64,000 bases of DNA from Bacteroidales bacterium (GTDB lineage Bacteria; Bacteroidota; Bacteroidia; Bacteroidales; NBLH01). This document shows, in pieces, positions 341-59,789 of the stretch. The stretch lies in NCBI GenBank assembly GCA_046329965.1, contig JAXLTR010000005.1:371385-435384 (forward strand), in the 5' to 3' direction. Position 1 is the first letter of the stretch. Each line of letters opens with the position of its first letter. Both the position numbers and the translations under genes were made by a program. The notes beneath the pieces are model-generated. The model was not told where the DNA came from and did not search any database. It saw only the letters and a list, made by a program, of their open reading frames with translations.

Positions 341-2563
341 TCAGTTTTTTGTACCCCATTTTTTATCAGGCCTCTCTCCCATCACAAGCTCCAGTTTGCC
401 TCCCTGCATAATATCAGTATGTTTGATAAAAGGCACATTTAAATCCTTTCCATTCAGCCTGGCAGATTGTATGTATTTGTTCTTTTTTGAGCAGGTTTTA
501 GCCTTTATAACAAATTTTTTTCCATCGGGCAGGATAATCTCCACTGATTCAAAAATCGGACTTCCAATGGCGTATTCTCCGCTTCCGGGTGTAACCGGAA
601 AAAATCCCATGGCCGAAAAAACGAACCACGAACACAACCCGCCTCCATCTTCATCGCCGGGTATGCCTAAAGGTCTGTCGTCGAACCACATGTCCATTAT
701 TTCGCGAACCCGGCGTTGGGTCTTCCAAGGTTCACAGGCATAATTGTACAGGTAAGGAATGTGCATGGAAGGTTCATTGCCGGCAACAAATTGTCCATTA
801 AGCCCAGTGGCATCAGGAAACTGACCCATAAATTGCCATTTCGAAATCCGTGTTGCTTCATTGAATAAAAGGTCGAGACGGTTTACAAAAACTTCGTTAC
901 CTCCCAGTAAATCAATTAATTCATGAATATTATGGGGTACAAAAAAATTCCAGGTCCAGGCATTGTTTTCAGCATAATACATACGTGCACCCACACCTCC
1001 CGAAAGTTGCGGATCGAAAGGCGTTATAAATTTTCCATTTTCCATTTTAGGCGCAAAAAAGCCATTGTTTGGATTGAAAAGGTTTTTGTAATTCTCTGAT
1101 CTTTTCATGAAATAATTGTAATCGTCTGTTTTACCCAGGGTTTTTGCCAGCTGAGCAAGGCACCAGTCGTCGTAACTGTGCTCAAGGGTTACCGCCACTG
1201 ATTGTCGCTTTTCAAAACCATCCACCATCGAAACAGATTCAACACTGTCGGCAGGAAGCGCGGGGAAATATCCGTTTGCCAGGTAGAAACTGTCGAGCCG
1301 GCACATAGGGCCCGAACGCCAGGGCAGCATGGTGGCATGGAGTGCATTTTTCCTCAATCCTTCGTAAGCCTTTTCAACATTAAAATTTCTGATTCCCTTC
1401 TGGTAGCAGTCCCAGACAAGGGCAGCAGAATGGAATCCAATCATGGCCGGAAAATCGCCGTACACCTGGGGAAAACCCGGCATCCAGCCACTTTGTTCAT
1501 ACATCAGGGTATACGAATTCACCATATCCGATTGTAAATCAGGGTTCAGAATGGTCATTAACGGGTGCAGCGAACGGTAGGTATCCCACAACCAGTCGTC
1601 CACAAAAAAAGCCCTGCCATTGTCGTTGTGTACCTTATCATCGAAACCACTGAAATATTTTCCTTCTTCCGAAATGTTCACCATACGCTCATAACATCGG
1701 TAAAGCGAAGTATAGAAAATTCTTTTTTGCCTTTCGGTTCCCCCTTTTACAATAATTTTTCCAAGCGACTGCTGCCATTCTTTTTGGCTTGCTGATTTTA
1801 TTTTTTCAAATTTTATACCACTGGTTTCGCTGTGCAGGTTTCTGGCAGCCTGTTCTTCGCTGATGTATGATATTCCAATCCTGATTTCAACTGGTTTTTC
1901 AGTTTTACCAAAATTCAGGAACAGGCCAACATGTGTACCTGAAATTTCGCTTCCCTGGTTTATTTTATTTGCGGCAATTGTTCCCGAACTTTGCAACGGC
2001 TGGCTTATTTCGGCATGAAAATATTGTTTTATATTTTCAAATTCTTCCCAACCGTGTACCCTGTCGTTTTCGAGTTTTAAAAAAGCCTTGTCATTAGACC
2101 TGAAAATCAAAGAACACGAATCGGCCTTGTTGTAATCGAACCTGTAAATAACAGCTTTTTCAGTGGTGGTCCAGTCGGCAGTGATATTGTAATCTTCGAG
2201 AAAAACCCTGTGGTACCAGGGATGAACTTCTTCCAAATCATGATCGTAAACCGAAGCAGTTTCATCGCGTGTGGTTTTTAATTTCCCGGTAAGGGGCATT
2301 ATCTCGGTTACTTGACTATTGCGGTAAGCTGGCATATTTAGCGCGAAGCCATAAATTTTATCGCTGAGGTACCTGTCGTTAAGTCCGGGCCGGGTAACCG
2401 GAAAAACCCTCACCATGCTGTTGGGCCTGTGAACCGTGGGTGCTTTGGTGGTAAGCAGTGGTGCAACAGTGCCAATATTGGGATCGACTAATTGGGTTAC
2501 GTCATTGCCGGAACAGGTAAGCAAAAATGCCAAAACCGGTAAGATAAAGTATTTTGTATTCAT
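341..2563 (-). CDS. glycoside hydrolase family 92-like protein (putative alpha-mannosidase), secreted
   Basis: 740-aa ORF with N-terminal signal peptide. Blocks VDPNIGT, YDHDLEEVHPWYHRV and DDWLWDTYRSLHPL resemble conserved GH92 blocks (NPFIGT, Y.H..E.A.PGYY.V, WDTYRA.HPL). Family-level call only. Confidence 0.5.
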   Translation of the reverse strand: MNTKYFILPVLAFLLTCSGNDVTQLVDPNIGTVAPLLTTKAPTVHRPNSMVRVFPVTRPGLNDRYLSDKIYGFALNMPAYRNSQVTEIMPLTGKLKTTRDETASVYDHDLEEVHPWYHRVFLEDYNITADWTTTEKAVIYRFDYNKADSCSLIFRSNDKAFLKLENDRVHGWEEFENIKQYFHAEISQPLQSSGTIAANKINQGSEISGTHVGLFLNFGKTEKPVEIRIGISYISEEQAARNLHSETSGIKFEKIKSASQKEWQQSLGKIIVKGGTERQKRIFYTSLYRCYERMVNISEEGKYFSGFDDKVHNDNGRAFFVDDWLWDTYRSLHPLMTILNPDLQSDMVNSYTLMYEQSGWMPGFPQVYGDFPAMIGFHSAALVWDCYQKGIRNFNVEKAYEGLRKNALHATMLPWRSGPMCRLDSFYLANGYFPALPADSVESVSMVDGFEKRQSVAVTLEHSYDDWCLAQLAKTLGKTDDYNYFMKRSENYKNLFNPNNGFFAPKMENGKFITPFDPQLSGGVGARMYYAENNAWTWNFFVPHNIHELIDLLGGNEVFVNRLDLLFNEATRISKWQFMGQFPDATGLNGQFVAGNEPSMHIPYLYNYACEPWKTQRRVREIMDMWFDDRPLGIPGDEDGGGLCSWFVFSAMGFFPVTPGSGEYAIGSPIFESVEIILPDGKKFVIKAKTCSKKNKYIQSARLNGKDLNVPFIKHTDIMQGGKLELVMGERPDKKWGTKN

Positions 2564-2719
2564 AATTAAAATTTGTAGTTCCTGAAATCCTGCTTAACCT
2601 GGTTATAGACTAAATATTCTGAAGAACAGGATGTAACTACAAATTTAAGCAAAGAATTTGATTTGTTCCGGTTTGGACCAAATTAAAAGATCAAACATTG
2701 CCTGTGAATGCCCAAAGAA

Positions 2720-3679
2720 TTATTCTTCGATAAATACCGGTGATAATTGTGATTTATAAGTGGTGTCGGTTAATTGTTTTTTCTCTTTGGTTTCCCAGTT
2801 CATGAGTGTGATATGGAATTGACTTTCTTTATTGTCGGAACTGTTAAAAACAAGCCATTTCCCATCGGGACTCCAGTCGTGCCAACCTTCTGAATCCGGA
2901 TTATCGATAAGTTTCCATTGTTTTTTGCCGTCGGGGGTTATGGCAAAAATACTGTGCCGGCCATCCTGCATCGAAACATAGGAAATGAAATTTTCTGTAG
3001 GGTGCCAGCGTGCCGAACCCGCCCTGTAACCGTAATCTTTTGCAGACGGGTTATTTTCAGGATAATGTGTAAGTTGGGTAAGTCTGCTGCCGTCTTCGTT
3101 CATCAGGTACAATTCTTCATGAGTGGCCCTGTCTCTCCTTTTTTTCTTGTAACTGAACACAATTTTTTTTCCATCGGGTGAAAAACAGGGATCACGGAAT
3201 AAGGCTGCGGTATCGTTTGTAATTTGCCTGTAATTGCCTGTTTTTGTGTTAATAATAAAAAACTGAAACCGGACTTCTTTTCCTTTTCTTCCGGCAACTA
3301 CTATTTCTTCACCGTTGTTTCTGCAACTCATCCAGCTGTCTTCTAATTGCAATTGGCTGATTTTCTTTACATTGTTCCCATTGGCGTCCGTTTCGTAAAG
3401 GAAAAAACAGCGGTAACAGGTATCGCGATCACTAATAAAGAACAAACGGTTTTTATAAGCAGTATAAGTCCAGGCCACGTCATCGTTATTGAGAATGTTT
3501 TTCTTTCCCGATCCATCAAAGTTCATTTTTATAATTTCCCAATCGTCTTTGGTGGTATCAGGCAAATGAATGTTGTAGGCGATGCTTAATTTTTTCGTAT
3601 TGCTTTTTATTATTATTTGGGCTGTTCCGACTGAATAGAACAGAAAACAAATTGAAAACAAGGCCAGTATTTTCTTCAT
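2720..3679 (-). CDS. PD40/TolB-like WD40 beta-propeller repeat protein, secreted
   Basis: 319 aa with signal peptide. Repeated SPDGKK/SPDGKWLVF-type PD40 motifs. 4-nt ATGA overlap with the downstream gene. Confidence 0.6.
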   Translation of the reverse strand: MKKILALFSICFLFYSVGTAQIIIKSNTKKLSIAYNIHLPDTTKDDWEIIKMNFDGSGKKNILNNDDVAWTYTAYKNRLFFISDRDTCYRCFFLYETDANGNNVKKISQLQLEDSWMSCRNNGEEIVVAGRKGKEVRFQFFIINTKTGNYRQITNDTAALFRDPCFSPDGKKIVFSYKKKRRDRATHEELYLMNEDGSRLTQLTHYPENNPSAKDYGYRAGSARWHPTENFISYVSMQDGRHSIFAITPDGKKQWKLIDNPDSEGWHDWSPDGKWLVFNSSDNKESQFHITLMNWETKEKKQLTDTTYKSQLSPVFIEE

Positions 3680-4251
3680 GATTTATGTGTTCGTTTATAG
3701 GATATGCTTAAAAGTTCCATTGCACTTTCATTCAGCTGATTTGCTTCTTTAATAATAATCATGTGCGAAATGCGCGGCATTGGGCCTGTAAGTTTTGATT
3801 TTTGAATGCTTTCATTAAATTGTAAATCACCTAAATCAAGCCCCAACCTAATTTCGCCGGGTTTTACATTTATGGCCGCAAATTCCCGGATTGCAGTAAA
3901 TGAGAAATACGTTTTTTTAGGAATTAATTGTGTTCCATTAAAGGATGAAATGATTTTTCCGGAAATAAGGTCAAACAACGGGCGCATTTCAGGGCATTTT
4001 GTAAACTGGTTTTCGATCAGGGCATTTGGATTGTTATAAACAGGATTTCCATTGTTAAGGTAGATTCCGGCAATAAATTGAGACTGCATATGGTTTAATT
4101 TGTGTACCTTTTTTAACCATTCAAGAATTTCGTTACTTTTTTGCATTCCTGTTGCCTTAACGAGTAAGAGCCATTCTTGCAAAGAATTACCCGTAACCGA
4201 TTTTGCAGTTTCAATAAATTCTTTTTCCAATTCTGCTGATGTTTTTGCCAT
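3676..4251 (-). CDS. DUF4287/DUF5655 domain protein
   Basis: 191-aa ORF. N-terminal MAKTSAELEKEFIETAKSVTG segment is typical of DUF4287-family proteins. Function unknown. Confidence 0.5.
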   Translation of the reverse strand: MAKTSAELEKEFIETAKSVTGNSLQEWLLLVKATGMQKSNEILEWLKKVHKLNHMQSQFIAGIYLNNGNPVYNNPNALIENQFTKCPEMRPLFDLISGKIISSFNGTQLIPKKTYFSFTAIREFAAINVKPGEIRLGLDLGDLQFNESIQKSKLTGPMPRISHMIIIKEANQLNESAMELLSISYKRTHKS

Positions 4252-4270
4252 GATTTTAATTTTTACAAAT

Positions 4271-4419
4271 CAACGTCGTTTAGTTAGTAAAACATCTTAT
4301 TTCAATTAATAATTGGTGTATCTATCTTGGTGTATTGGGGATTTTGTGGCCCTATATTATGCCACCAAAACACTAAAACACCAAATTTTCACCAAAAATT
4401 TCTTAACTAAACAGCATTG
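4271..4419 (+). mobile_element. MITE-like element copy A (diverged), 149 bp, flanked by perfect 10-bp direct repeat TTTTACAAAT (4261-4270 and 4420-4429)
   Basis: Termini caacgtcgtttag ... ctaaacagcattg are imperfect 13-bp inverted repeats. The internal hairpin GTGGC-N10-GCCAC and CACCAAA(T) direct repeats are shared with copies B and C. Lies 9 bp upstream of the start codon of the 3676..4251 gene. Confidence 0.65.
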
Positions 4420-4431
4420 TTTTACAAATTC

Positions 4432-5316
4432 TTATTTCTGTGGTTTGAATTCTAAAATTTCATCGCGTTTTGGAGATGAAACGTATTGTTTTTTATTTTT
4501 CCCTTTTTTATCCATTATCCAAATATCAGAATTTTCTGCTACCCTTGTATATGCAATATATTTGCCGTCGGGTGTCCAGCGGGGCCATCGGTTATCCAAT
4601 GTATCAGAAGTTAATTGTTTAATATTACTTCCATCCGTATCCATCATATAAATATCAGCTTTCCCATTTAAAAAATAATGACAAACCAACTTTTTACCGT
4701 CGGGTGAAATATCTAAAGCTCCGTCATTTCCAATTCTGTTCGTTATTCTTGTGTGGTAACTTCCTGATGTATCAGTAACAAATATTTCGCTGTTTGTTAT
4801 ATTATTGGCAGTATCTTTATCCATAAAAGAAGAATAAAATATTCTTACTCCATCGGGATGGAAAGTAGCCGACCCGTCTAACCTGTCGTTGTTTGTTATT
4901 CTGGTCGTTTTTTTTGTGGCCAAGTTGGTTAAATAAATTTCATTTTGTTTGTGATCGGCATTTGAAACATATAAAATACATTTTTCATCCGGAGAGAATG
5001 AAGGTCCGTATTGGTTTATCGTGTCATTGGTTAATCTTTCAGTAGATTTGGTATCCGTATTATACAGAAAAAGATCATATTGTTTGTTAATTAGTTTTGC
5101 AAACAGGATAAACTGCCCGTCCGGACTCCATTTGATTCCGTAATCCACAGGTTTATCATTGGTTATATTAACCGATTCGTTATTGACGGATGAAACATAA
5201 ATATCGGAATTTCCGTTTCTATCAGAAAAAAAGGCATATTCGTATTTGATTGTACCGCAGGATACAAAGAATAAAAATCCTATAACGGACAGATATTCAA
5301 TTCGTTTTTTCAACAT
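4432..5316 (-). CDS. PD40/TolB-like beta-propeller repeat protein, secreted
   Basis: 294 aa with signal peptide. Repeated DISPDGKK / WSPDGQ / WTPDGKY PD40 motifs. Confidence 0.6.
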   Translation of the reverse strand: MLKKRIEYLSVIGFLFFVSCGTIKYEYAFFSDRNGNSDIYVSSVNNESVNITNDKPVDYGIKWSPDGQFILFAKLINKQYDLFLYNTDTKSTERLTNDTINQYGPSFSPDEKCILYVSNADHKQNEIYLTNLATKKTTRITNNDRLDGSATFHPDGVRIFYSSFMDKDTANNITNSEIFVTDTSGSYHTRITNRIGNDGALDISPDGKKLVCHYFLNGKADIYMMDTDGSNIKQLTSDTLDNRWPRWTPDGKYIAYTRVAENSDIWIMDKKGKNKKQYVSSPKRDEILEFKPQK

Positions 5317-5331
5317 TTTACTTTAATTAAA

Positions 5332-5742
5332 TTATCGCCAGGCTCCTAATATAAAGCCTATTAATGTAAAATAAACGGTAATATAACCCCCGTTTATTAA
5401 AATATACTTCCACGAGCGTTGCTCAAACAGGGCTACTACAGCAAATATTAAAGCAGAAAATCCAAATCCGGCAAGAAAACCTGCCATTGCACCCCAACTG
5501 GCAGTGGTTTTATCATCACCCAGAAAAAAAGCAAGGTTGTAACTAATTATAAGAGAAAGAATAAAACTAATACCATACGTTTTAGCCAGGTTAAATTTTT
5601 GTTTTACAATTTCTTCTGTCAAGTTGTTTTCTTTCATCCATGCTTTGTAAAAAAGCAAAGGGGAATACCAGATTGCCCCCACTACCAGGTTGGATGCAGC
5701 GCAAACCAGCACTGCCCAATGATTAATGTACATATTTTCCAT
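5332..5742 (-). CDS. DUF1761 family membrane protein
   Basis: 136 aa with 4 predicted TM segments. Begins MENMYINHWAVLV..GAIWYSPLLF, characteristic of DUF1761. Confidence 0.5.
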   Translation of the reverse strand: MENMYINHWAVLVCAASNLVVGAIWYSPLLFYKAWMKENNLTEEIVKQKFNLAKTYGISFILSLIISYNLAFFLGDDKTTASWGAMAGFLAGFGFSALIFAVVALFEQRSWKYILINGGYITVYFTLIGFILGAWR

Positions 5743-5810
5743 GGTTCTATGATTAAATTTATTTTCAAAAATAGCAGTATATGATAAAGAAATATTGGAA
5801 AAAATTTACC

Positions 5811-6629
5811 TCATCCTACAGCAATATAATTGGTAAATTCACTTTGCATTTTAAGGTACTGATTTGGTGTAAATCCCGAAAACGCTTTGAAATCATTAAT
5901 AAAATGGGCCTGGTCATAATATCCGCTTTCAAATGCAATTTCTGTCCAGTCAGCGAATTTTTTGGCTTCAATTTCCCTTATGGCTTTCTGAAAACGGATA
6001 ATTTTCAAAAACGATTTTGGTGTTAAACCAACATTTTCCCTGAATATTTTGATAAAATGTTTTTGCGAATACCCGACTTTACCTGATAAATGGCTGATTG
6101 ATAGCTGATGAGGGTTTTTTAAAATCAGGTTTACCGAGTAGTCTATAAACGGATTTAGAACCAATTTGCCGGCAAAAGATTTTGTAAGATATTTTTCAGC
6201 AAACTGAAACTTTTGCTGAGCTGTTGAACATTCAAGTAAAGTTTCGCGCATGTTCAGAATTTCATTCGACATCACCAGTTCACCGTCCACGACAAAATCA
6301 GTGAGTTCGTTCATGGGCATTTCCACAAAGGGATAAGCTTTGCCTTTTTGAAAATAGATAATGAACATCTCGCTGTCGCGTCCCGAAGGAATAGTAATAT
6401 ATTTTTCACGAATTCCTGAAAACCAGACATTTCTGCACGACTGGATTTCTTTTAAAGAGTTGTTGTCGTAAATGTATTTGGGGTAATCGGTAAGGTCAAA
6501 AACAACATAGGTATATCCGTCAGGCAAAAACCGGTCTACCGAATGTTCGGGGTTATATCCTTTATAATAAACAAAATGCTCAATAAAATGATTAAGAGGT
6601 GGCGCCGGTATGTAATTTTCGAATATCAA
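5811..6629 (-). CDS. AraC family transcriptional regulator
   Basis: 272 aa. C-terminal HTH_AraC signature (HFIKIFRENVGLTPKSFLKIIRFQKAIREIE ... YDQAHFINDFKAFSGFTP). Confidence 0.75.
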   Translation of the reverse strand: MIFENYIPAPPLNHFIEHFVYYKGYNPEHSVDRFLPDGYTYVVFDLTDYPKYIYDNNSLKEIQSCRNVWFSGIREKYITIPSGRDSEMFIIYFQKGKAYPFVEMPMNELTDFVVDGELVMSNEILNMRETLLECSTAQQKFQFAEKYLTKSFAGKLVLNPFIDYSVNLILKNPHQLSISHLSGKVGYSQKHFIKIFRENVGLTPKSFLKIIRFQKAIREIEAKKFADWTEIAFESGYYDQAHFINDFKAFSGFTPNQYLKMQSEFTNYIAVG

Positions 6630-6691
6630 ATATCAGTTAATTGTTTGGTTATAAATTTAAAGATACTAAAAATACTATTAATACTTCCCAT

Positions 6692-8257
6692 TCAAGGCCG
6701 GTTATTCTTCAAACACCTGACAGATAAGAATAATTCTTTTAGGATTGCAGTTAACCCGGCTCCCTTATAATTTAAAGTTTCGGTCGGACGGTAAACATTT
6801 AAATACCAAGCGGTATTTTTAACTACAACATTGTCGTCAGATTCAGTCCAAAAACAGGCAAGAGTATTTAATCCAGATATTATGTCTACTATGACATACC
6901 CTGCAAACCGAACTGAAAATTGAGAGAGCCCCCCTTCATTAAGGACTTCAAATAATTCAGCCTGGTTGGATATCCCACCCAACTGGTCTAATAGTAACTG
7001 AAAATCTGATTTCGCAGGTAATTTCCAGCCTGGTGGACAAACCTGTTGGGCTGTTTCCCAGTTATACCAATACCCATATTTCTTTAAATCATCAGGATTT
7101 TTAGATTTAACCCAGCCATTTGTGCTCTGGTAAGCCAGATTTTCAGCCATCCATACCTGACCACCAATTTTTACCACTTTGTATTGCTTTCCATCCCGAG
7201 GGTCGATTAATTTTTCATTAAGAATTGTCCCTTTCCTGCTTTTGGCCATTAAATTTGTGAACCGGTTTTGAATGATGACAAAATTTTTACGAAATGGTTC
7301 AGAACCCCTTATTTCAAGGATATGTTTCCCCGGAGCCAAATTATTTATGGTCAGTGTCCGTTTTTCATCAGTAACATCCCCATGTTTTATACTGTCAATG
7401 AAAACCTCCCCTGTTATTTCAGATTCAAATTTTAAACCCATGGTTGACTTTTCAGTATTATCATAAATGTTCCCCTGCTGGTTTTCGATTTCATTACTGA
7501 TTACAGAAGCTGATTTTTTAGTGAAGTAAAATTCCCCTGTCAGTTTGGTCCATTCCTGTGGACTTTGGTTTCCCCCACTGGCTTTTTGCACATCCACACG
7601 GGTATTTTTAAAAACTGTTTCAATGGGGATAGGTTTTGAAAGGTGTTTCACCAGTTTTTCGGTGAAAAGCCCGTTGCTCCCTTCGCCATCACTGGCGGTG
7701 GCCCCTTCGCTGGTGGCAAAAGCTATAATAGTGCCACTTCCCGGGTTCATGGCCTTAAATCCCCTTGCCCCACTCCTTGCCCACGAACGGAATGGGTTAT
7801 TCCGGCAGGCATCCAGTATAACGATATTTGTATTTTGAGGATATTCTTCAAATTTTGATACCACTTCATTTACCGAAATAGCCTCAAAACTTACCATGTC
7901 CTGGGTATTCATGGTGGCATCAACCGGTATAAGGTAATTTACCCCGTTTACCTGTACACCGTGCCCTGCATAGAAAAACAAAGCCACATTGTAATTGCCA
8001 AGCTTGGACCAGAAATCGGTAATGGCTTGGGCCATTTGGGTCCGATTGGCATTTATCTTTTTAATTACTGTAAATCCAAGGCCCTGAAGGGTGGAAGCCA
8101 TCAGGTTGGCATCGTTCACCGGATTTTTAAGGGGTGCGTTATTATAGGTGTTGTTTCCAATAATTAAAGCAATGCGTTTTTCAATATTTTGGGAAAAACT
8201 ACTGATAATTATAAAAAAAAATACTGATAAACTAACAAATTTTTTCATTCCACTCAA
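6692..8257 (-). CDS. secreted caspase-family (peptidase C14) protein fused to a C-terminal Fibrobacter-succinogenes-major-paralogous (FISUMP) domain
   Basis: 521 aa with signal peptide. Caspase His/Cys dyad context FFYAGHGVQ ... IVILDACRNNPF. C-terminal KIGGQVWMAENLAY ... YNWETA ... CPPGWKLP motif typical of the TIGR02145-type FISUMP domain. Confidence 0.7.
   Translation of the reverse strand: MSGMKKFVSLSVFFFIIISSFSQNIEKRIALIIGNNTYNNAPLKNPVNDANLMASTLQGLGFTVIKKINANRTQMAQAITDFWSKLGNYNVALFFYAGHGVQVNGVNYLIPVDATMNTQDMVSFEAISVNEVVSKFEEYPQNTNIVILDACRNNPFRSWARSGARGFKAMNPGSGTIIAFATSEGATASDGEGSNGLFTEKLVKHLSKPIPIETVFKNTRVDVQKASGGNQSPQEWTKLTGEFYFTKKSASVISNEIENQQGNIYDNTEKSTMGLKFESEITGEVFIDSIKHGDVTDEKRTLTINNLAPGKHILEIRGSEPFRKNFVIIQNRFTNLMAKSRKGTILNEKLIDPRDGKQYKVVKIGGQVWMAENLAYQSTNGWVKSKNPDDLKKYGYWYNWETAQQVCPPGWKLPAKSDFQLLLDQLGGISNQAELFEVLNEGGLSQFSVRFAGYVIVDIISGLNTLACFWTESDDNVVVKNTAWYLNVYRPTETLNYKGAGLTAILKELFLSVRCLKNNRP
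7530..8257. repeat. duplicated ~730-bp segment (caspase-domain coding region), copy 1 of 2
   Basis: Roughly 90% nucleotide identity to 9030..9756 by direct comparison. Identity drops abruptly upstream of 7530/9030. Confidence 0.8.
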
Positions 8258-8259
8258 TT

Positions 8260-9756
8260 TTATTCAATTTTTATACATCGGACTGATAATCCACAATCGT
8301 TCCTGTTTTTTTCAATTGCCATTTTCAATTTCAGATTGGTAATGCCAAAATAAAAAACGAGCTGATTCTGATCACTAGAGGCAGTCCAATATGCCTCTTC
8401 GTCATTAAGATACATATAAGCCCCGGATAAAGGTATTTTGAAACCAGCAAATGAAGGAGAAAAACTCGCTCCTTTTCCATTGACCAAGGAGTTATATCTT
8501 TCTTCAGAAGTATTGCCTAGATAATTAAATAATTTTTGCACATCTTCCTTCGAGGGAAGTTTCCATCCAGGAGGACATACAGTTTTTGCCGATTCCCAGT
8601 CATATAAGTAGCCATAATTTTCAATATTTTTCGAATCATCATCGTATACCCAACATCCTTTTTCAAGTTTTAGTGCCATGTTTTGGGTCATCCATACCTG
8701 GTCCCCTATTTTTGCATAGGAATAGGTTTTGTTATTTCGTCTGTCATATAAAACTGAATTCAGGTTATCAAATGAAAAATTTGTTGTTTTCCCCTCTGCT
8801 ACATAGATTTCTCCAGTTTTTTTATCTTCTCCTTCAAGGACGATCGAATGTTTGCCAACAGGGATATCCTTAAATATATTTCCTTTTGATTTTGAAGCCA
8901 GGAATCCAATTTTATTTCCATCAATGTAGAGAAAACCTCTCGTTTCACTGTCGATTGAAATGTTGCCGTATTTTGTCATTTCATTATCAGTCGTCTCCGT
9001 ATTCACTTGAATTTTTGATTTTACGAAAAAAAATTCCCCTGTCAGCTTGGTCCATTCCTGCGGACTTTGGTTTCCCCCACTGGCTTTTTGCACATCCACA
9101 CGGGTATTTTTAAAAACCGTTTCAATAGGAATTGGTTTTGAAATATGTTTTACAAGCTTTTCGGTAAATAACCCGTTATTCCCTTCGCCATCACTCGCAG
9201 TAGCCCCTTCGCTGGTTGCAAAGGCTATGATTGTCCCGCTTCCCGGGTTCATGGCCTTAAATCCACTGGCCCCGCCTCTTGCCCACGAGCGGAAAGGGTT
9301 ATTACGGCAGGCATCTAATATAACAATATTTGTATTTTGTGGATATTCTTCGAATTTAGATACTACCTCATTCACCGATATAGCCTCAAAGCTTACCATG
9401 TCCTGGGTATTCATGGTAGCATCAACCGGGATCAGGTAATTTACCCCGTTTACCTGTACTCCATGGCCTGCAAAGAAAAACAAAGCCACGTCGTAATTAC
9501 TCAGCTTGGACCAAAAATCGGCAATGGCCTGGGCCATTTGTACCCTGTTGGCATTCACTTTTTTAATCACTGTAAAACCAAGCCCCTGCAAGGTAGTAGC
9601 CATCAGGTTAGCATCATTCACCGGGTTTTTAAGGGGTGCGTTACTATAGCTGTTGTTTCCTATAATCAGGGCAATACGTTTATCATTGGTTTGGGATATC
9701 ATTGTATTTGCAAAATGTATTATTAATAGGGAACAAATAAACTTCTTCATATTCAA
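8260..9756 (-). CDS. secreted caspase-family (peptidase C14) protein with C-terminal FISUMP domain; tandem paralog of 6692..8257
   Basis: 498 aa with signal peptide. Same caspase block (FFFAGHGVQ, IVILDACRNNPF). C-terminal KIGDQVWMTQNMAL ... YDWESA ... CPPGWKLP. Confidence 0.7.
   Translation of the reverse strand: MNMKKFICSLLIIHFANTMISQTNDKRIALIIGNNSYSNAPLKNPVNDANLMATTLQGLGFTVIKKVNANRVQMAQAIADFWSKLSNYDVALFFFAGHGVQVNGVNYLIPVDATMNTQDMVSFEAISVNEVVSKFEEYPQNTNIVILDACRNNPFRSWARGGASGFKAMNPGSGTIIAFATSEGATASDGEGNNGLFTEKLVKHISKPIPIETVFKNTRVDVQKASGGNQSPQEWTKLTGEFFFVKSKIQVNTETTDNEMTKYGNISIDSETRGFLYIDGNKIGFLASKSKGNIFKDIPVGKHSIVLEGEDKKTGEIYVAEGKTTNFSFDNLNSVLYDRRNNKTYSYAKIGDQVWMTQNMALKLEKGCWVYDDDSKNIENYGYLYDWESAKTVCPPGWKLPSKEDVQKLFNYLGNTSEERYNSLVNGKGASFSPSFAGFKIPLSGAYMYLNDEEAYWTASSDQNQLVFYFGITNLKLKMAIEKNRNDCGLSVRCIKIE
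9030..9756. repeat. duplicated ~730-bp segment (caspase-domain coding region), copy 2 of 2
   Basis: Roughly 90% nucleotide identity to 7530..8257. Confidence 0.8.
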
Positions 9757-10435
9757 AAGAATTTTAAAACCAATTAAAAATAAAAATTTTCCAAAACTAA
9801 AATTGTTATAAAACTTAAAAGTGAATTTTCCATTATGGAAATTAATAAACCAATTAACTTCAAATCATAATCAAAGAGTGAATCTATATATTTATTCTCA
9901 TTATTTTTCTAATGCCAAAATTTAGAATCAATTTAGAAAAAATGTCAGTCTATTAAACCCTTCTTAATATCCAATGTGTACTCCATCTCATAATTATTAA
10001 AGAATCTAATTCACAGAAAGAGGAATCCACATTTTAAGAAATATTGGATTTTACCCGTAAACGCTTTTAGCGTTGTAACTAAAGTTACTATTATTTCTGG
10101 TTTTGTATTGGTATCTTTCGATAAGCTTAAGTTAAATATGGTTGTTTGCCAGGTAAAAAAATTAATTGCCCAACTATTATCAAAAGAAAGAATACCAGCT
10201 TATCCTGAAGATCTTTCGGTTTTGTAATTCGTAAATTTGTTATTTGGAATGGATTTAAATAAACCCGGGTTTGTCTTTAGAAAAATTCTAATGATAATTT
10301 TGGGATAAACGCCGGTAATAGCTCAAAATTCGGTTATAATTTCCATAAACCTGGTAAAAGCCGTTGTTTTTTAGTAAAATGTCCGTATGGCAGGTCAGCT
10401 CGTCAGTCCAGTGCAGCTGGCCAGGGTTACATTCC

Positions 10436-11203
10436 CTACTTTGAAATATCCAGAAAATTATCCTGTATTCTTTCCTTCCATTTTTTGTATTCGCGTTGTA
10501 AAAGCAGTCTGTTAATTTCTCTTCCGTGCGATGGAAGAAATATATTACATTTTGTTTCAAGCAGTTTTCCCCAACTTTCAACCATTAAGGCAACATCATT
10601 CGCAAATGGAGGAAAAACAGAACCGCTAAAAACGCCAAACATGGCATCGCCGACAAGGGCTATTTCATCATCAACAATTAAACTCATCGAACCCGTAGTG
10701 TGGCCTGGGGTGTGGATTAAACAGGCTTTAATTCCAAATTCTTTTAGATCATAAATTTCATCCAGGAGTAAATCCGGAATGCAAGGTTCGTAATTAAATT
10801 TTGGCGAAAGTTTTTTACCTACAAATTTCATCAATGGTTTGGTAAAAAATGTCGTCCCGTTTGGTAAAATATTCTCTCCTGCAGTCAGATAACCGGCTTC
10901 GTTTTTATGGATAATTACAGGAATTTTATATTTCTCTTTTACTTTATTTGCATTGGCTGCATGGTCAAAATGAGCATGGGTTAAAATCAGGCAGTCGATG
11001 TTTTTTAACGAAAGTTTGACAATTTGCTTTTGTAACTTTGCCCAAAGTCGCGAAACTGAGGCATCAACCATTAAATTATTTATTCCGTTTGACACTATAA
11101 AAACATTGCATCTCCCTGATAAAACACGGATTATTTCATAACCATTTTTAGTTTTCCATTTTTTCAATTTAAAACAGGTTTTTATTTTAGGATTCAATGT
11201 CAT
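10436..11203 (-). CDS. MBL-fold metallo-hydrolase
   Basis: 255 aa with HxHxDH motif (LTHAHFDHAAN). The predicted ATG (11201-11203) lies inside the terminal repeat of MITE copy B, so the true start is uncertain. Confidence 0.7.
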   Translation of the reverse strand: MTLNPKIKTCFKLKKWKTKNGYEIIRVLSGRCNVFIVSNGINNLMVDASVSRLWAKLQKQIVKLSLKNIDCLILTHAHFDHAANANKVKEKYKIPVIIHKNEAGYLTAGENILPNGTTFFTKPLMKFVGKKLSPKFNYEPCIPDLLLDEIYDLKEFGIKACLIHTPGHTTGSMSLIVDDEIALVGDAMFGVFSGSVFPPFANDVALMVESWGKLLETKCNIFLPSHGREINRLLLQREYKKWKERIQDNFLDISK

Positions 11204-11348
11204 TTAGATAATGATTTTTTTCGTGGAAGTTGGTGTCTTTGTGTTTTAGTGGCGAAAACACTTTTGCCACCAAATCACCAAATCACAAAATCTCACCAAA
11301 TCTTCAATAAATTGATATTTTATATTTGTCATTAACTAAACAACATTG
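11195..11348 (+). mobile_element. MITE-like element copy B, 154 bp, 13-bp TIRs (caatgtcatttag / ctaaacaacattg), 10-bp flanking direct repeat TTTTAGGATT / TTTTAAGATT (9 of 10)
   Basis: About 93% identical to copy C over the full length. Contains hairpin GTGGC-gaaaacactttt-GCCAC and CACCAAAT direct repeats. Overlaps the first three codons of the MBL hydrolase ORF. Confidence 0.8.
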
Positions 11349-11405
11349 TTTTAAGATTTCAAAATAATTGTTTACAGTTGGTTTTATATAGTTCAACCCT
11401 AGAAA

Positions 11406-12596
11406 CTAACGGCCAAATTCTTTTTCAATCAAATTCACAGTTAGTTCCACGCCGTTTACATTTTTAAGTTTTTGTGCCATTTCAACAGCATTTTTCTTAT
11501 AGGTTTCATTGTTTATACATTCCATAATGGCATTAGAAATGGCCCGGGTACTGATTTTTTTAAAATTGCAGGTTTTGGGGCCAAGGTTTAGTTTCACTAT
11601 CTGGTCACGGTTCATAAACTGGTCGCCCATAAAAGGAAAGGCAGCATGCGGAACACCGGCCCTTGCCACTGCCGACATGGTTCCGGTTCCACCATGGTAC
11701 ACTACTGCCACCAATCGCGGAAAGAGCAGCTCAAAAGGCATGTCGTCAACATATAAAATATTTTCATTATTATTTTCGGGCAAATTGGCCCATCCTTTCG
11801 ATACAATTAAGCGTTGTTGGGTTGTTTGTTGCACTTCTATAAAAATCTGGCCGTATTTTTCGGGACCTGTAATGGGGTTGCTTCCAAATCCAATATAAAC
11901 AGGTGGTTTTCCGGAATTAATGAAATTTTCAACCCCATCAGGCAGCTGGTTTTTCGATGGTAAAATCATGTAGGCCGTCTGTGTAAATGAAAAAGCAACT
12001 TCTTTACGGGCTTCAACAAGTTCCCTGTCACAGGCCATTATAACATTATCGCCCAGCCAATGGTGCCAGGCATCCTTAATGGGAGGAAGCTGGTATTTTG
12101 CCCTGTTTTTATTGATAAATCCCCTTATAAACAGGTTTATCATCTTTCGTCCAAAAGCAAACATCATCCTGTTTTTTAACGGGTCTTCAGGAGTGGTTCC
12201 CAGCAGAATAGGATAAAAAGCCACAAGCCGGTATGGAACTTTTAAAATATCTGCAGCTGTTTGTACCCCCATCACTATGCCTGTTGCCAATACCAGGTCA
12301 ACCGGTTTTATCAGTTCCGGTAAAATATTAATTTGATCCCCTATCAATTTCTTCCCCTGTTTTGGTGAAATTTTTACAGCCACCCCACCTTTCTGCTTTT
12401 GAGGGTTTTCGTTTATCTGTTTTTTAATTTCGGGGCCGAATTTAATAAACCTGCAATTGTTGGTTACTACAAGTTGTTCATTTTCAGGAGGGGCGCAAAT
12501 TACTACATCGTGTCCATTTCCGGTAAGGCCTTTAGCAAGGGCCACCATAGGCTGAACATCGCCGCGTGTGCCGAGAATTACAATGGCTATTTTCAT
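11406..12596 (-). CDS. glycosyltransferase family 1 (MGT/UDP-glucuronosyl-transferase-like)
   Basis: 396 aa. N-terminal MKIAIVILGTRGDVQPMVALAKGL (GT1 N-domain). C-terminal HGGTGT ... donor-binding block. Confidence 0.65.
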   Translation of the reverse strand: MKIAIVILGTRGDVQPMVALAKGLTGNGHDVVICAPPENEQLVVTNNCRFIKFGPEIKKQINENPQKQKGGVAVKISPKQGKKLIGDQINILPELIKPVDLVLATGIVMGVQTAADILKVPYRLVAFYPILLGTTPEDPLKNRMMFAFGRKMINLFIRGFINKNRAKYQLPPIKDAWHHWLGDNVIMACDRELVEARKEVAFSFTQTAYMILPSKNQLPDGVENFINSGKPPVYIGFGSNPITGPEKYGQIFIEVQQTTQQRLIVSKGWANLPENNNENILYVDDMPFELLFPRLVAVVYHGGTGTMSAVARAGVPHAAFPFMGDQFMNRDQIVKLNLGPKTCNFKKISTRAISNAIMECINNETYKKNAVEMAQKLKNVNGVELTVNLIEKEFGR

Positions 12597-12767
12597 AAAA
12601 CTTTTTTAAATTTTACTTTCAGGGATCCACAAGTTTAAAATTGTACCGGACAAGTACTTTCAACAAGTTGTTTAATTATATTTATCTCATATTTAAATAC
12701 ATAGAATAGCCGGCTTCTTCTAAATAAAAATTTATTTTTTATGGAAATAGTTTTAAAACAGGAACCT

Positions 12768-13694
12768 TTAATAAGCCACTTTCCTGTCAAGCCTTCTTTT
12801 TAGTTCATTTGCATAACACTTTCCAATTGTATCCCTGTTTTGTTTCAACCAATCTGTAAGCTTTGTTTTTCCGGCAGGGGGTCCGTCAGAATAAAGCAAA
12901 TCGGCCTTAAGTCCTTTTATTTCCTGGCGGGTTATCAGTTTATCCCCTTTTATCAGGCCCACAATTTTCGAAATCCATAACCCAATTTCATCTGGCAATG
13001 GAAAAACTTTCCGCTCCTTTCCCAACATTATTGCCGACATGGCTTTAATCAGTTCTTTATAGGTAAAAATTTCAGGACCGGTGGCATCAATAACCGCATT
13101 GCTCGATTTAAATCCTTGTTCTACAGCCAGATCGGCAAAATCTTCCACAAAAATGGGCTGGAGCTTATAATTTCCATTTCCAAACATGCCAAACACGGGG
13201 AAATTTCTTATCATCCATGCAATGTTATTGATGAGTATGTCTTCTTTTCCAAAAATAACGCCCGGCCGTAAAATGCTGTACGAAATTCCTGTGGCAGCCA
13301 GTTCTTCTTCAAGAATGCCTTTGCCTGAATAATATTCCAGTGGAGAGTCCTTATCGGGTTTAAGAATGCTGGTATGCACAATCCGGCCAACACCGGCAAT
13401 TTTGGCTGCCTTAAAAAGTTTTATTGTATTTTCTACAGCTTCGGAATGTCTGAATTTTCGGTGGTTAAACCTTACCCAGTAAGTGTTGTACAACACAGAT
13501 ACACCTTGCAGGGATTCGGCGAGTTGCGCGGGTTTATCAAAATAAAAAGGGGAAACCTGTATTTTGTTACCGAAATCATTTTTTCTATCCAGCGAATTGG
13601 TGAGTGTTTTAACATTAAATCCTTTATTTAAGAGCTTTTGGGCTATGTATTTGCCGGTGTATCCGAATGCGCCGGTAACAGCATGGATTTCCAT
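12768..13694 (-). CDS. NAD(P)-binding NmrA-like / atypical SDR family protein
   Basis: 308 aa. N-terminal Rossmann motif VTGAFGYTGKYIAQKLLNKGFNV. Confidence 0.6.
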   Translation of the reverse strand: MEIHAVTGAFGYTGKYIAQKLLNKGFNVKTLTNSLDRKNDFGNKIQVSPFYFDKPAQLAESLQGVSVLYNTYWVRFNHRKFRHSEAVENTIKLFKAAKIAGVGRIVHTSILKPDKDSPLEYYSGKGILEEELAATGISYSILRPGVIFGKEDILINNIAWMIRNFPVFGMFGNGNYKLQPIFVEDFADLAVEQGFKSSNAVIDATGPEIFTYKELIKAMSAIMLGKERKVFPLPDEIGLWISKIVGLIKGDKLITRQEIKGLKADLLYSDGPPAGKTKLTDWLKQNRDTIGKCYANELKRRLDRKVAY

Positions 13695-13734
13695 TTTAGT
13701 TATTTCGTTGTAAAAAAATATTCAATTAATAAAT

Positions 13735-14421
13735 TTACCTAACTGTTTCAGAATTGAAGTTTTCTCGTTGGTTTAAAATATCAATATAATATAATAAATC
13801 TTCAATACTAGCTTCATCTTCGCTATAATTTAGCCTCCCCTTTAGGTCTTCGTATAGATCAATAAGACGCAAAACATAATTCTTAGTCAGTTCAATGGGC
13901 AATCCAGAATTCATATCAAGAATATAATCAACTTTATGAACTTTTCCTTGATAAAAATTAGCACCGCCTGTTCCGTTCGAAAGAGTCGCAATCGACTGTG
14001 CAAACACAACTGCTGATATATATTCTCTTGCATTATCTCTTCTAATTTTCATTGCCCCTAATGTTACTCCTTTAAAGTAGTTGTATTTTTTTAAGGTTTG
14101 AAATTTTATGTACCCTGGTGCCATTCCAAATCTTTCAACATTCAAATAAAAAGTTCCATTGTTGTATATTCCCCAAACAATTTTTTTAATTGTCTTTTCT
14201 GAAATTTTATTATCTAATGGAGTAACTTTATAAAGTTCTGGAATTGACGAAGATTTTATTTCTTCAATTTGAATATTAAGAATATAAAAAGGTGAATTAT
14301 TCTTAAAATCAATGAAATTCCTATAAATACCGTTTTTAACAGAATCAATTTGACTAAAACCTTTTACGAAACTAATTGTCAAAAAAATGATTGACATTAA
14401 TTTTTTTTTTGTGAGGATCAT
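13735..14421 (-). CDS. hypothetical secreted protein in an AT-rich island; a poly-A10 tract lies at codons 4-7
   Basis: 228 aa with signal peptide. GC content is visibly lower than neighbours. 14401-14410 is T10 on + (A10 in the coding strand, encoding KKK). Confidence 0.4.
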   Translation of the reverse strand: MILTKKKLMSIIFLTISFVKGFSQIDSVKNGIYRNFIDFKNNSPFYILNIQIEEIKSSSIPELYKVTPLDNKISEKTIKKIVWGIYNNGTFYLNVERFGMAPGYIKFQTLKKYNYFKGVTLGAMKIRRDNAREYISAVVFAQSIATLSNGTGGANFYQGKVHKVDYILDMNSGLPIELTKNYVLRLIDLYEDLKGRLNYSEDEASIEDLLYYIDILNQRENFNSETVR

Positions 14422-14973: not shown

Positions 14974-16347
14974 TTGGCCCGGTTTAATTTTGATTTAAAA
15001 TTTGATGCTATGCAAAAGAGGAAATTTATAGAAAAATTAATTGTTTCAATTGTTTGTTCGCTGAATATCACTGTTTACGGGCAAACCCCCGACAGTTTAT
15101 GGACCTTGCCAAAATGCATCGACCAGGCCATGCAAAAAAATATCAGTATCCAGGAAATGTCCCTTTCGAACGAAACCAACCAGATACAGGAATTACAGGC
15201 CAGGGCTGAGCGGTTTCCTTCGCTGAATGCCTCTGTTTCACAAAATTTTCAATGGAGCAGGCCGGTTGATCTGGAAAATAATTATGGGGAATACGAAGCC
15301 AGAAATGGTACAACTTTCGGAATAAATTCATCCGTAGTTTTGTACAACGGTTTCAGGATTAAAAACAGCATCAAACAGGCTGAACTTAGCTACAAAGCTG
15401 GTTCTTATGAAGTTGATGCACTTAAAGAATCTGTCAGTCTCCAGGTATTGTCAGCTTACTTGCAGGTGCTGTATTCCGAAGAACAGGTAAAAAATACGGA
15501 AAAGCAGATAGAATCAACATCGCAGCAGCTAAGTTTATCGGAAGAAAGGCTCAGGCTGGGATCCATTGCCAAATCAGATTATTTACAGGTAAAATCAGAA
15601 CTGGCTACCGAGAATTACACTCTGGCCTCGGCCCAAAATCAATTGGCGGTTAACCAGGTCACTTTAATGCAATTAATGGAAATACCGGTTACCCCGGGGT
15701 TTAAAATACAACGTCCCGATTTTGATATATCCAAAGGCTACCAGTACCCTGTCAGTTCCGATTCCATTTACCTGCTGGCATTGGGCATTAAGCCACAGGT
15801 AAAAAGTTCGGAATTGAACAAACAAATTGCAGAAATTGAGATTTCTATCGCAAAAGCCGGCTATCAACCCAGTCTTTCATTAAGTGCCGGGATTAATTCC
15901 AGCTACCAGTCAGGTGGGGCAAATGCTTATTCAAATCAGTTGATGAACCAGATGATTCCTGCTGTTGGCATAAATTTGTCCATCCCAATATACCAGAACA
16001 GGCAATTAAAATCATCGGTTGCCAGGGCAAAAATTGGAATTTCGGATGCAGGGCTCCAGGATTTGAACACGAAAAACCAGCTTCGTAAAAATATTGAACA
16101 GGCTGCCGTTGATTTCAACTCAGCCATTATTAAATACCAGGCCAGTCTTGATAAATTCAATTCTTCTACAGAAAGTTACGATGTGGCCCAGGAAAAGTTT
16201 AAACAGGGTTTACTGAATTCTGTGGATTTTTTAATTCAGAAAACCAATCTGATAAGTGCTGAAAGTGAGTTACTTCAATCAAAATACAACCTGGTGTTCA
16301 GCAAAAAAATAATAGATTTTTATGCCGGAATTCCACTGACATTTTAA
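14974..16347 (+). CDS. TolC-family outer membrane efflux protein
   Basis: 457 aa. Two OEP repeats with coiled-coil-rich sequence. First gene of an efflux operon. The start may be an internal Met (around 15010). Confidence 0.75.
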   Translation: MARFNFDLKFDAMQKRKFIEKLIVSIVCSLNITVYGQTPDSLWTLPKCIDQAMQKNISIQEMSLSNETNQIQELQARAERFPSLNASVSQNFQWSRPVDLENNYGEYEARNGTTFGINSSVVLYNGFRIKNSIKQAELSYKAGSYEVDALKESVSLQVLSAYLQVLYSEEQVKNTEKQIESTSQQLSLSEERLRLGSIAKSDYLQVKSELATENYTLASAQNQLAVNQVTLMQLMEIPVTPGFKIQRPDFDISKGYQYPVSSDSIYLLALGIKPQVKSSELNKQIAEIEISIAKAGYQPSLSLSAGINSSYQSGGANAYSNQLMNQMIPAVGINLSIPIYQNRQLKSSVARAKIGISDAGLQDLNTKNQLRKNIEQAAVDFNSAIIKYQASLDKFNSSTESYDVAQEKFKQGLLNSVDFLIQKTNLISAESELLQSKYNLVFSKKIIDFYAGIPLTF

Positions 16348-16600
16348 AAGATTAATTGAAATACCAGGGCAATAGAATGCAGCACAATTGTAAGCGAAAA
16401 TGGAAAAAGACCAGCACAATGATATTAAGAACGAAATAACAAATTGAAAAATATGTAAAATGGAACGGGCCTGAACCAAAAGTCTCAAATCAAAGCGGTT
16501 TTAGCCCCAATGAGCTGGCGAATGAGAAAAGTTTTAAGTGTGGTCAGAGACTATAAAACAATTATTTTCTATAAAAGAATTAAAAATCAAATATTTAAAT

Positions 16601-17842: not shown

Positions 17843-17872
17843 AGACAAAACAAAAAACAAAAGTCTATATAA

Positions 17873-59635: not shown

Positions 59636-59789
59636 TAATGTCGTTTAGATAAGGATTTTTTTCGTGCAAGTTGGTGTCTTTGTGTTTTAGTGGCAGTAAC
59701 ACTTTTGCCACCAAATCACCAAATCACAAAATCTCACCAAATCTTCTATAAATTGATATTTTATATTTGTCATTAACTAAACGACATTT
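59636..59789 (+). mobile_element. MITE-like element copy C, 154 bp, 13-bp TIRs (taatgtcgtttag / ctaaacgacattt; inner 12 bp perfect), perfect 10-bp target-site duplication AATTAAATGG (59626-59635 and 59790-59799)
   Basis: Coordinates derived directly from the sequence. About 93% identical to copy B. Internal hairpin GTGGC-agtaacactttt-GCCAC. CACCAAAT direct repeats. TATATTTG motif near the right end. Confidence 0.85.

Follow-up and report, generated by a model that had tools for sequence, protein, structure and literature searches.

Two adjacent genes, here called g1 and g2, are the subject of this report. They lie in a stretch of 64,000 nucleotides (nt) from a Bacteroidales metagenome-assembled genome (MAG) (GCA_046329965.1, contig JAXLTR010000005.1, positions 371,385 to 435,384), hereafter the window. 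It appears rather probable that the products of g1 and g2 are two variants of a single cysteine protease that is exported and directed to its target, and in which a paracaspase-like C14 domain is joined through a PEGA-like beta-sandwich to a C-terminal FISUMP domain of C-type-lectin (CLec) fold. A first-pass annotation, made by a model from the DNA sequence, had described two adjacent minus-strand open reading frames (ORFs) here, and both are found, at 6692..8257 and 8260..9756 (521 and 498 codons, counted from TTG at 8257 and TTG at 9756). The NCBI models start 3 and 2 codons inside these ORF ends. The products are identical to the database proteins P0001 (g1) and P0006 (g2), both from the 435-kb contig and both entered as 'MAG: caspase family protein [Bacteroidales bacterium]'. 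Since the g2 stop codon is only 11 nt ahead of the g1 ATG, the two genes are probably co-transcribed.

6692..8248, minus strand: g1, C14-PEGA-like-FISUMP protein of 518 residues, predicted to be exported; likely start ATG 8248
8260..9750, minus strand: g2, paralog of g1, 496 residues; likely start ATG 9750

The paracaspase-like protease module

The Pfam profile Peptidase_C14 matches both proteins over its full length (g1, E 7.9e-40, 137.4 bits; g2, E 2.9e-40, 138.8 bits; cut-off 21.4 bits), in agreement with the caspase assignment of the first-pass annotation. Among solved structures, the MALT1 paracaspase comes nearest, by sequence (E 4e-14) as well as by fold (Foldseek E 2.6e-16; TM score 0.78 to the isolated caspase domain 3v4o). 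Caspases-6, -7, -8, -9, -11 and CED-3 follow MALT1 in the Foldseek search. The AlphaFold model of g1 residues 25-244, in which the predicted local distance difference test score (pLDDT) is mostly >90, has the caspase/haemoglobinase alpha-beta fold.

7517..8179, minus strand: g1 paracaspase-like C14 domain, residues 24-244 (Pfam, homolog alignment, model)
7961-7963, minus strand: codon of catalytic His96 of g1
7805-7807, minus strand: codon of catalytic Cys148 of g1
9022..9684, minus strand: g2 paracaspase-like C14 domain, residues 23-243 (catalytic and S1 residues numbered as in g1)

The residue numbers of MALT1 were carried onto g1 and g2 through a HMMER alignment, with the following correspondence.

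MALT1 H415: H96 of g1 and g2, catalytic
MALT1 C464: C148 of g1 and g2, catalytic
MALT1 D365: D46 of g1 and g2, S1 pocket
MALT1 D462: D146 of g1 and g2, S1 pocket
MALT1 E500: D187 of g1 and g2, S1 pocket

The His/Cys dyad is thus intact in both paralogs, as had been claimed, within the motifs AGHGVQ and LDACRNNPF, which contain the conserved G-H-G and D-x-C-R contexts. None of the five residues varies among 48 aligned full-length homologs, the set to which the conservation figures below refer. In MALT1, three acidic residues make up the S1 pocket that holds the P1 arginine (PMC4357240). Because the three acidic residues of g1 and g2 align with these and are invariant, both proteins are predicted to be active proteases that cleave after Arg or Lys. 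The loop that follows the catalytic Cys in g1 (residues 150-172) is Arg-rich and modelled with low confidence, and its Arg158 is invariant. Other C14 enzymes suggest, by analogy, that this loop may serve autoprocessing, possibly after Arg158, or regulation.

Signal peptides and export

Both N-termini, MKKFVSLSVFFFIIISSFS and MKKFICSLLIIHFANTMIS, each followed by Gln, are typical of signal-peptidase-I signals. A basic n-region is followed by a hydrophobic core and by a cleavage motif of small residues (SFS in g1, MIS in g2), with the Gln directly after it.

8192..8248, minus strand: g1 signal peptide, residues 1-19, cleavage predicted before Gln20 (sequence, model helix 2-18, Q-rule)
9694..9750, minus strand: g2 signal peptide, residues 1-19, followed by Gln20 (sequence)

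Gln20 is almost invariant among the homologs, and its position after the cleavage motif agrees with the 'Q-rule' described for signal peptidase I substrates of Bacteroidetes (PMC5837995). Since the signal peptides and the conserved Gln agree with this rule, g1 and g2 are predicted to be exported across the inner membrane by Sec. Sequence inspection revealed no lipobox Cys at the cleavage region of either protein. Nor does g1 or g2 match PF18962 (Por_Secre_tail), the C-terminal domain of type IX secretion, their C-terminus being the FISUMP domain itself; PF18962 is carried by some stand-alone FISUMP proteins among those retrieved with the C-terminal half as the sole query (at least 27 proteins). 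The mature proteins would most likely reside in the periplasm or cell envelope. The first-pass annotation had recognised the signal peptides and left the choice between periplasm and surface open; given that both a lipobox and a type IX domain are lacking, the periplasm is the more likely of the two.

The spacer and the lectin-fold module

Between the protease and FISUMP domains, a 'divergent middle region' had been noted. Such a region exists, but structure prediction resolves it into a disordered linker (residues 245-267 of g1) and a folded beta-sandwich (residues 268-338). The full-length g1 model (pLDDT 85.5) has the disordered linker followed by two folded modules, and the C-terminal half modelled by itself reaches a pLDDT of 92.3. 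Fold comparison was needed for this half because a sequence search of the PDB gave only a marginal PEGA-like match (E = 1). In the model, the fold of the middle module agrees with transthyretin-like and PEGA domains. The Pfam PEGA profile scores 27-28 bits, above its cut-off, at the equivalent position of the homologs P0012 and P0068.

7448..7516, minus strand: g1 disordered linker, residues 245-267 (pLDDT <50 at residues 246-267)
7235..7447, minus strand: g1 PEGA/transthyretin-like beta-sandwich, residues 268-338
8761..8964, minus strand: g2 PEGA-like beta-sandwich, residues 263-330 (Pfam PEGA 18.3 bits; aligned with the g1 module)
6701..7228, minus strand: g1 FISUMP domain, residues 341-516 (C-type-lectin fold in the model; conserved Cys404 and Cys512)
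8269..8751, minus strand: g2 FISUMP domain, residues 334-494 (Pfam and NCBIfam profiles)

The FISUMP assignment is upheld by two profiles in both proteins: Fib_succ_major of Pfam (PF09603; E ~3e-20, 73.6 bits in each, cut-off 33.9) and TIGR02145 of NCBIfam (E ~1e-31, 112.1 bits in g1 and 107.6 in g2, cut-off 41.65). The signature KIG.QVWM...CPPGWKLP is present as reported, except that its 'A..C' element was quoted one residue short and should read A-x-x-x-C. With both domains and the quoted motifs in place, the first-pass observation is borne out well above chance expectation. The domain models as a CLec fold, with TvpA, Lcl-CTD, FGE, PorK and Mtd as structural relatives. Of these, Lcl-CTD has sulphated glycosaminoglycans as its ligand (PMC11162425). 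Fib_succ_major has already been classed, together with DUF1566, among the lectin-fold target domains of diversity-generating retroelements (DGRs) (PMC5758913, PMC4159848). Cys404 is almost invariant and Cys512 invariant. An extracytoplasmic disulfide has been suggested for the FISUMP domain family (PMC5758913), and the Cys404/Cys512 pair points to an extracytoplasmic location of the FISUMP domain. The proposal that this domain serves as a binding or targeting module gains support from the lectin-fold model and from the DGR variable region of the homolog P0021, described next.

A homolog diversified by a retroelement

P0021, encoded at locus L090 (GCA_025361565.1, contig JANYKN010000104.1, a Bacteroidales-type MAG), has the architecture of g1, to which it is 45% identical. 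The locus carries a complete DGR cassette (L090:1296-5104) in the order P0021 gene, bAvd, template repeat (TR) and a reverse transcriptase (RT) of 438 residues. A direct repeat of 194 nt comprises the variable region (VR) at 2666-2859, which is made up of the last 65 codons of the P0021 gene, and the TR at 3508-3701, in the spacer between Avd and RT. The TR encodes runs of Asn (AAC) codons. TR and VR differ at 28 positions, 27 of which are template adenines. As adenine-specific mismatches are the diagnostic signature of DGRs, P0021 is verified as a genuine DGR target.

Because the DGR varies this surface in P0021, the last ~65 residues of the FISUMP domain are predicted to form the ligand-binding site.

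6701..6895, minus strand: g1 segment equivalent to the P0021 VR, residues 452-516, predicted ligand-binding surface

The 30 DGR-variable positions were defined as those whose template codons in the L090 TR have adenine at position 1 or 2. Column entropy in the 48-sequence alignment is 3.15 bits at these positions, compared with 1.61 at the other VR positions (Mann-Whitney p 4e-9) and 1.73 in the rest of the domain (p 3e-13). Likewise, g1 and g2 are identical at just 4 of the 30 DGR-variable positions, as against 13 of 32 other VR positions and 45 of 102 in the rest of the domain (41-44%). Variability within the family and differences between the paralogs are thus focused on the residues that the DGR mutates, which points to these as the binding surface.

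A DGR within the window was considered and rejected. The RT and Avd of L090, searched against the window ORFs, found no homolog, and the 64 kb contain no second copy of the g1 or g2 3' half that might act as a TR and no adenine-biased repeat. The sole window ORF with a YxDD motif is the GT1 glycosyltransferase at 11406-12596. As far as the structural model goes, g1 and g2 do possess the C-terminal CLec-fold domain of DGR targets. Locus L092 gave an Avd-like phmmer match but has no RT and no adenine-biased repeat, and was discarded as a DGR locus; the large repeat found there stems from duplication of an fn3-FISUMP gene.

Mosaic evolution of the tandem pair

Between g1 and g2, the caspase domain has 94% identity in amino acids and 87% in DNA over 667 nt. 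This DNA similarity ends sharply at both borders of the domain, and it is undetectable between the two 3' halves. Synonymous (dS) and nonsynonymous (dN) divergence, with P0004 as a third sequence, is as follows.

Caspase domain, g1 versus g2: dS 0.75, dN 0.035
Caspase domain, g1 or g2 versus P0004: dS 1.3-1.4, dN 0.09
C-terminal half, g1 versus g2: dS saturated, dN 0.70
C-terminal half, g1 or g2 versus P0004: dS saturated, dN 0.60-0.62

These differing dS and dN patterns mean that the two halves of g1 and g2 have had different histories. Either the protease half would have been homogenised by gene conversion, or the binding modules would have been swapped by recombination. A second tandem pair, P0059/P0063 (L088, L089), is 84% identical at the protein level in the caspase domain versus 31% on the FISUMP side. 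The two partners of each known tandem pair are one another's best match in the caspase domain but not in the FISUMP domain. Other members of the C14-FISUMP family likewise show module mosaicism.

Occurrence of the C14-FISUMP fusion

The architecture is not rare, since PF00656 and PF09603 occur together in 80 of the 120 best protein clusters. Metagenomes or Bacteroidales/Bacteroidota MAGs are the source of nearly all of the C14-FISUMP clusters among these 120. In public databases these are named in general terms only ('caspase family protein', 'TIGR02145 family'). No literature that names Fib_succ_major, TIGR02145, FISUMP or PF09603 was found to deal with caspases, and no discussion of the fusion was found. 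Given these names and this literature search, the architecture is indeed uncharacterised, as the first-pass annotation had surmised; it is, on the other hand, a common one, which that annotation had named as a finding that would count against its claim if joined with annotation of a known function, and here the annotation is generic.

The caspase subtype itself, with its motif ILDACRNNP, has a far wider range. In a library of representatives at 50% identity, 64,886 clusters match at E <= 1e-3 and 15,498 at E <= 1e-30. Among the matches listed in scans of genomes and metagenome contigs, it occurs across many phyla; because most of these matches cover the caspase domain only, the contig scans reflect the breadth of the subtype and not the frequency of the fusion. 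The subtype is found at either end of many architectures, including the C-terminus of many unrelated ones. Its other C-terminal partners include FGE-sulfatase (PF03781), Lcl_C/DUF1566, PF09136, F5/8 type C, GUN4 and SH3 domains. FISUMP domains also occur in long arrays: P0147-P0153, P0168, P0169 and others are proteins of 1000-1650 residues with 5-10 tandem FISUMP domains.

The broader design is not new, inasmuch as fusions of caspase homologs to lectin folds are already known: metacaspase-FGE-sulfatase proteins, recorded in surveys (PMC3501461), and cyanobacterial orthocaspase-CLec proteins, which are DGR targets and their paralogs (PMC7517822). What is distinctive here is the FISUMP subtype of lectin fold, the PEGA-like spacer, the paracaspase-like S1 pocket, the predicted Sec/Q-rule export in Bacteroidales and a tandem arrangement that appears to be maintained by conversion.

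Proposed mode of action and alternatives

In the model that we favour, the g1 and g2 precursors would leave the cytoplasm through Sec, and signal peptidase I would remove the signal peptide in front of Gln. The N-terminal paracaspase-like module would cleave after Arg or Lys. The lectin-fold FISUMP domain would bind a protein or glycoconjugate ligand and so bring the protease to its substrate. Ligand binding might also switch the protease on, either by proximity-induced dimerisation of the kind known from MALT1 and caspases or by way of autoprocessing within the Arg-rich loop that follows Cys148. The relative P0021 obtains its variability from a DGR, and the window pair would be a hard-wired form with two fixed specificities. 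Its protease halves would have been kept near-identical by gene conversion or recent recombination, while its recognition modules would have diverged long ago, most of all at the binding surface. Because the protease halves are near-identical and the recognition modules have diverged, the pair is envisaged as one protease chemistry with two target specificities.

Several points weigh against this model. Protease activity, P1 specificity, location, mode of activation and nature of the ligand are all inferred. The periplasmic location is argued solely from the absence of known surface-sorting signals. The arrangement of the domains relative to each other is uncertain (predicted TM-score, pTM, 0.50 for the full-length model), and the Pfam PEGA profile (PF08308), which has a cut-off of 20.8 bits, reaches only the 18.3 bits listed above in g2 and goes undetected in g1. 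With no RT, Avd or TR in the window, the link to DGRs depends on homology to a single locus, L090, the only one of ~15 distinct contexts inspected in which a DGR was found. Finally, genomic neighbourhoods are not conserved among the ~15 inspected contexts and, as a consequence, no partner or substrate can be proposed.

Four other explanations were weighed, all of them less likely than a target-directed protease. The two proteins might be housekeeping proteases of envelope maturation that cut the cell's own exported proteins after Arg, possibly type V pilins or lipoproteins. Arg-gingipains perform such processing in Porphyromonas, and the Arg/Lys specificity and extracytoplasmic location predicted for g1 and g2 would suit the task. 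The assembly of Bacteroidales type V pili requires cleavage at a conserved Arg (PMC11601372), and FISUMP domains are found on pilus-associated DGR targets (PMC4159848). However, gene context is not conserved and there are no pilus genes among the neighbours examined. Highly divergent binding surfaces, in one case DGR-mutated, are in keeping with variable targets and not with a single conserved substrate. Moreover, the matches listed in the scan of species-representative genomes cover mainly the caspase domain, the full fusion having been seen mainly in metagenomic Bacteroidales. We therefore think a housekeeping role improbable. To the idea that g1, g2 or both are remote targets of a DGR, whose RT, Avd and TR lie elsewhere in the genome and rewrite their 3' ends to give a hypervariable pair, we attach somewhat less credence still. 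A homolog of the same architecture, P0021, is a verified target, remote targets of DGRs are known (PMC7517822, PMC7159879) and the window covers 64 kb of a 435-kb contig. Within these 64 kb, though, there is no RT-like ORF, Avd homolog or second copy of the 3' ends. Since the g1 and g2 3' halves have no detectable DNA similarity, a single template could not serve both. Furthermore, the GC-rich hairpin that accompanies the L090 variable region is absent after the g1 stop codon.

The two remaining explanations are, in our judgement, very improbable. One of them views g1 and g2 as intracellular cell-death or anti-phage effectors of the NTPase/EACC1/VMAP caspase type, in which CLec sensors do occur together with peptidase effectors (PMC7159879, PMC10907252). 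Weak domain-level matches point in this direction: the NCBIfam profile NF047832 ('caspase, EACC1-associated type') gives 59.0 and 59.7 bits, and PADLOC returns a generic 'caspase' domain match only (52 bits). But the NF047832 scores are far under the cut-off of 140; the signal peptides with their conserved +1 Gln, as well as the conserved Cys pair, point to a location outside the cytoplasm; and no NTPase, vWA, MoxR or adaptor-domain genes are among the neighbours examined in the window and at homolog loci. The other, equally far-fetched, would have g1 and g2 as non-catalytic adhesins or scaffolds whose caspase fold is no longer a protease. Pseudo-orthocaspases are indeed known in bacteria (PMC6426788). 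Yet the 48 homologs are without variation at His96 and Cys148, at the Gly residues that flank them and at the three S1 acidic positions, and purifying selection on the caspase domain is strong (dN/dS ~0.05 between g1 and g2).

A bolder extension of the target-directed protease model, which we consider doubtful, would make C14-FISUMP proteins an extracytoplasmic 'recognise-and-cut' system against variable foreign molecules, diversified by DGRs or tandem paralogs and comparable to an antibody joined to a protease. The lectin fold would act as an antigen-binding domain that guides an Arg-specific caspase-like protease. The foreign targets would be phage, competitor or host proteins met in the periplasm or at the surface. 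Diversification through tandem paralogs would be germ-line, with the protease halves homogenised by gene conversion.

Bacterial caspase homologs have mostly been discussed as intracellular effectors of cell death or defence, and DGR targets as proteins whose part is passive binding (phage fibres, adhesins, sensors). The C14-FISUMP family unites the two, apparently outside the cytoplasm, in the form of a probable Arg/Lys protease with a binder that a DGR can reprogram. If activity and targeting hold true, Bacteroidota would gain a functional class of exported paracaspase-like enzymes, and target-programmable proteolysis a natural example. The paralog pair, with the same protease and different binders, would then be a tractable system for studying recognition by FISUMP, a very large domain family. 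The window itself presents an uncharacterised yet widespread gene family rather than a new principle.

Genomic neighbourhood of g1, g2 and their homologs

The first-pass annotation drew attention to an AraC regulator immediately downstream of g1. It is there, on the same strand, but it is not a conserved partner: it is adjacent in the window alone and lies within 3-5 kb in one other lineage. A role as the dedicated regulator of g1 and g2 was thus discarded as unsupported, and with a neighbourhood that is not conserved among homologs any link between them is unproven.

5811..6629, minus strand: AraC-family regulator (DUF6597 + HTH_18), 62 nt downstream of g1

The remaining neighbours are unrelated. 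A run of 13 consecutive minus-strand ORFs without evident functional coherence (341-14421) includes genes for GH92, two PD40 propeller proteins, DUF5655/DUF4287, DUF1761, AraC, g1, g2, a metallo-beta-lactamase-fold protein, the GT1 glycosyltransferase, an NmrA-like protein and DUF6563. It is followed on the plus strand by a TolC/HlyD/ABC efflux set (15010-18619). An intergenic repeat of 159 nt is present at 11196-11354 and 59637-59795 in copies with 93% identity; the window contains its core, TTTTGCCACCAAATCACCAAATCAC, exactly two times, zero occurrences being expected by chance. Imperfect internal repeats of ~220 nt with ~60% identity (42963-43597) lie within an ORF of 680 residues (41817-43859, minus strand).

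A scan of the whole window with Rfam detected zero RNA families. Scans of 5700-10500 for sigma-70 promoters and terminators were uninformative because counts were no higher than in shuffled sequences; the promoter consensus of Bacteroidota differs from the sigma-70 consensus used. By eye, the motif TAGTTTTG (TAnnTTTG-like) is seen ~45 nt upstream of the g2 ATG in an AT-rich region.

At homolog loci, FISUMP-bearing genes are clustered in three cases. The C14-FISUMP gene adjoins a gene for an 814-residue fn3-FISUMP protein in L092 (2563-5007), for a 705-residue Peptidase_C92(weak)/PKD-FISUMP protein in L173 (2770-4887) and for a stand-alone FISUMP protein of 282 residues in L174 (7696-8544). L173 also borders a type I restriction-modification system. 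In one sub-lineage (L002:1866-5785, L003, L004 and L091:4078-7563), genes for a PKD lipoprotein and a small outer-membrane beta-barrel are directly upstream of the C14-FISUMP gene (P0015, P0067). This arrangement, with protein identities of 52-57%, is absent from the window and may constitute a lineage-specific operon. A serpin gene is located two genes downstream of that of P0015 (L002:7562-8740); L003 and L004 end too soon to show it. The serpin was rejected as a cognate inhibitor of P0015, as it is seen in L002 only, with a DDE_Tnp_1 transposase gene in between. At L001 (3568-4328), a tandem repeat with a unit of 176 nt, present in 4.3 copies with 96% matches, precedes the C14-FISUMP gene of P0004 by ~380 nt, and each repeat unit holds a terminator-like hairpin.

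Comparison with known systems

Like g1 and g2, MALT1 (MEROPS C14B) has the His/Cys dyad together with three acidic residues in S1, to which it owes its Arg specificity (PMC4357240). The strand order of the g1 model appears to fit the six-stranded caspase/paracaspase sheet. In both cases a beta-sandwich follows the catalytic domain, namely Ig3 in MALT1 and the PEGA-like module in g1 and g2. Identity is merely ~17-23%, however. MALT1 is cytosolic, bears death and Ig domains and is activated in the CBM complex, whereas g1 and g2 have a signal peptide and a lectin-fold C-terminus; their activation by dimerisation would be a parallel at the level of inference only.

The gingipains RgpA and Kgp of Porphyromonas are cysteine proteases of clan CD with specificity for Arg or Lys; they are exported and combine catalytic, beta-sandwich and adhesin/binding domains. 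They offer an analogy of design, that of an exported Bacteroidota clan CD protease with a beta-sandwich and a binder. They belong to family C25 rather than C14, and they have an N-terminal prodomain, a type IX C-terminal domain and surface attachment, none of which is found in g1 or g2. The clan relationships of gingipains and C14 enzymes have been described (PMC4357240).

In biological conflict systems, hypervariable CLec sensors have been proposed to work with peptidase effectors (PMC7159879, PMC10907252). The NTPase/EACC1/VMAP caspase effectors have the caspase fold in common with g1 and g2 and are often combined with such 'sensor' domains. They differ in that g1 and g2 fail the NF047832 profile (59 versus 140 bits), have no NTPase, vWA or MoxR partner and carry an export signal. 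TvpA, Mtd, TaqVP, Legionella LdtA and Lcl-CTD (DUF1566), a group of DGR variable proteins and related CLec binders, are on the other side pure binders that act as phage fibres, surface lipoproteins or adhesins. In g1 and g2 the binder is covalently joined to a protease, and the window genes are without a DGR.

The metacaspase/orthocaspase-FGE proteins have the same syntax as g1 and g2, an N-terminal caspase homolog followed by a C-terminal CLec fold (PMC3501461, PMC7517822). As in the C14-FISUMP family, the cyanobacterial orthocaspase-CLec proteins include DGR targets and non-diversified paralogs. The lectin fold is FGE-sulfatase there and FISUMP/TIGR02145 here, although PF03781 is found on some caspase relatives of the same subtype. 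The PEGA-like spacer and the Bacteroidales host set g1 and g2 apart. Most of the cyanobacterial orthocaspase-CLec proteins are predicted to be cytosolic, whereas g1 and g2 are predicted to be exported by Sec in keeping with the Q-rule.

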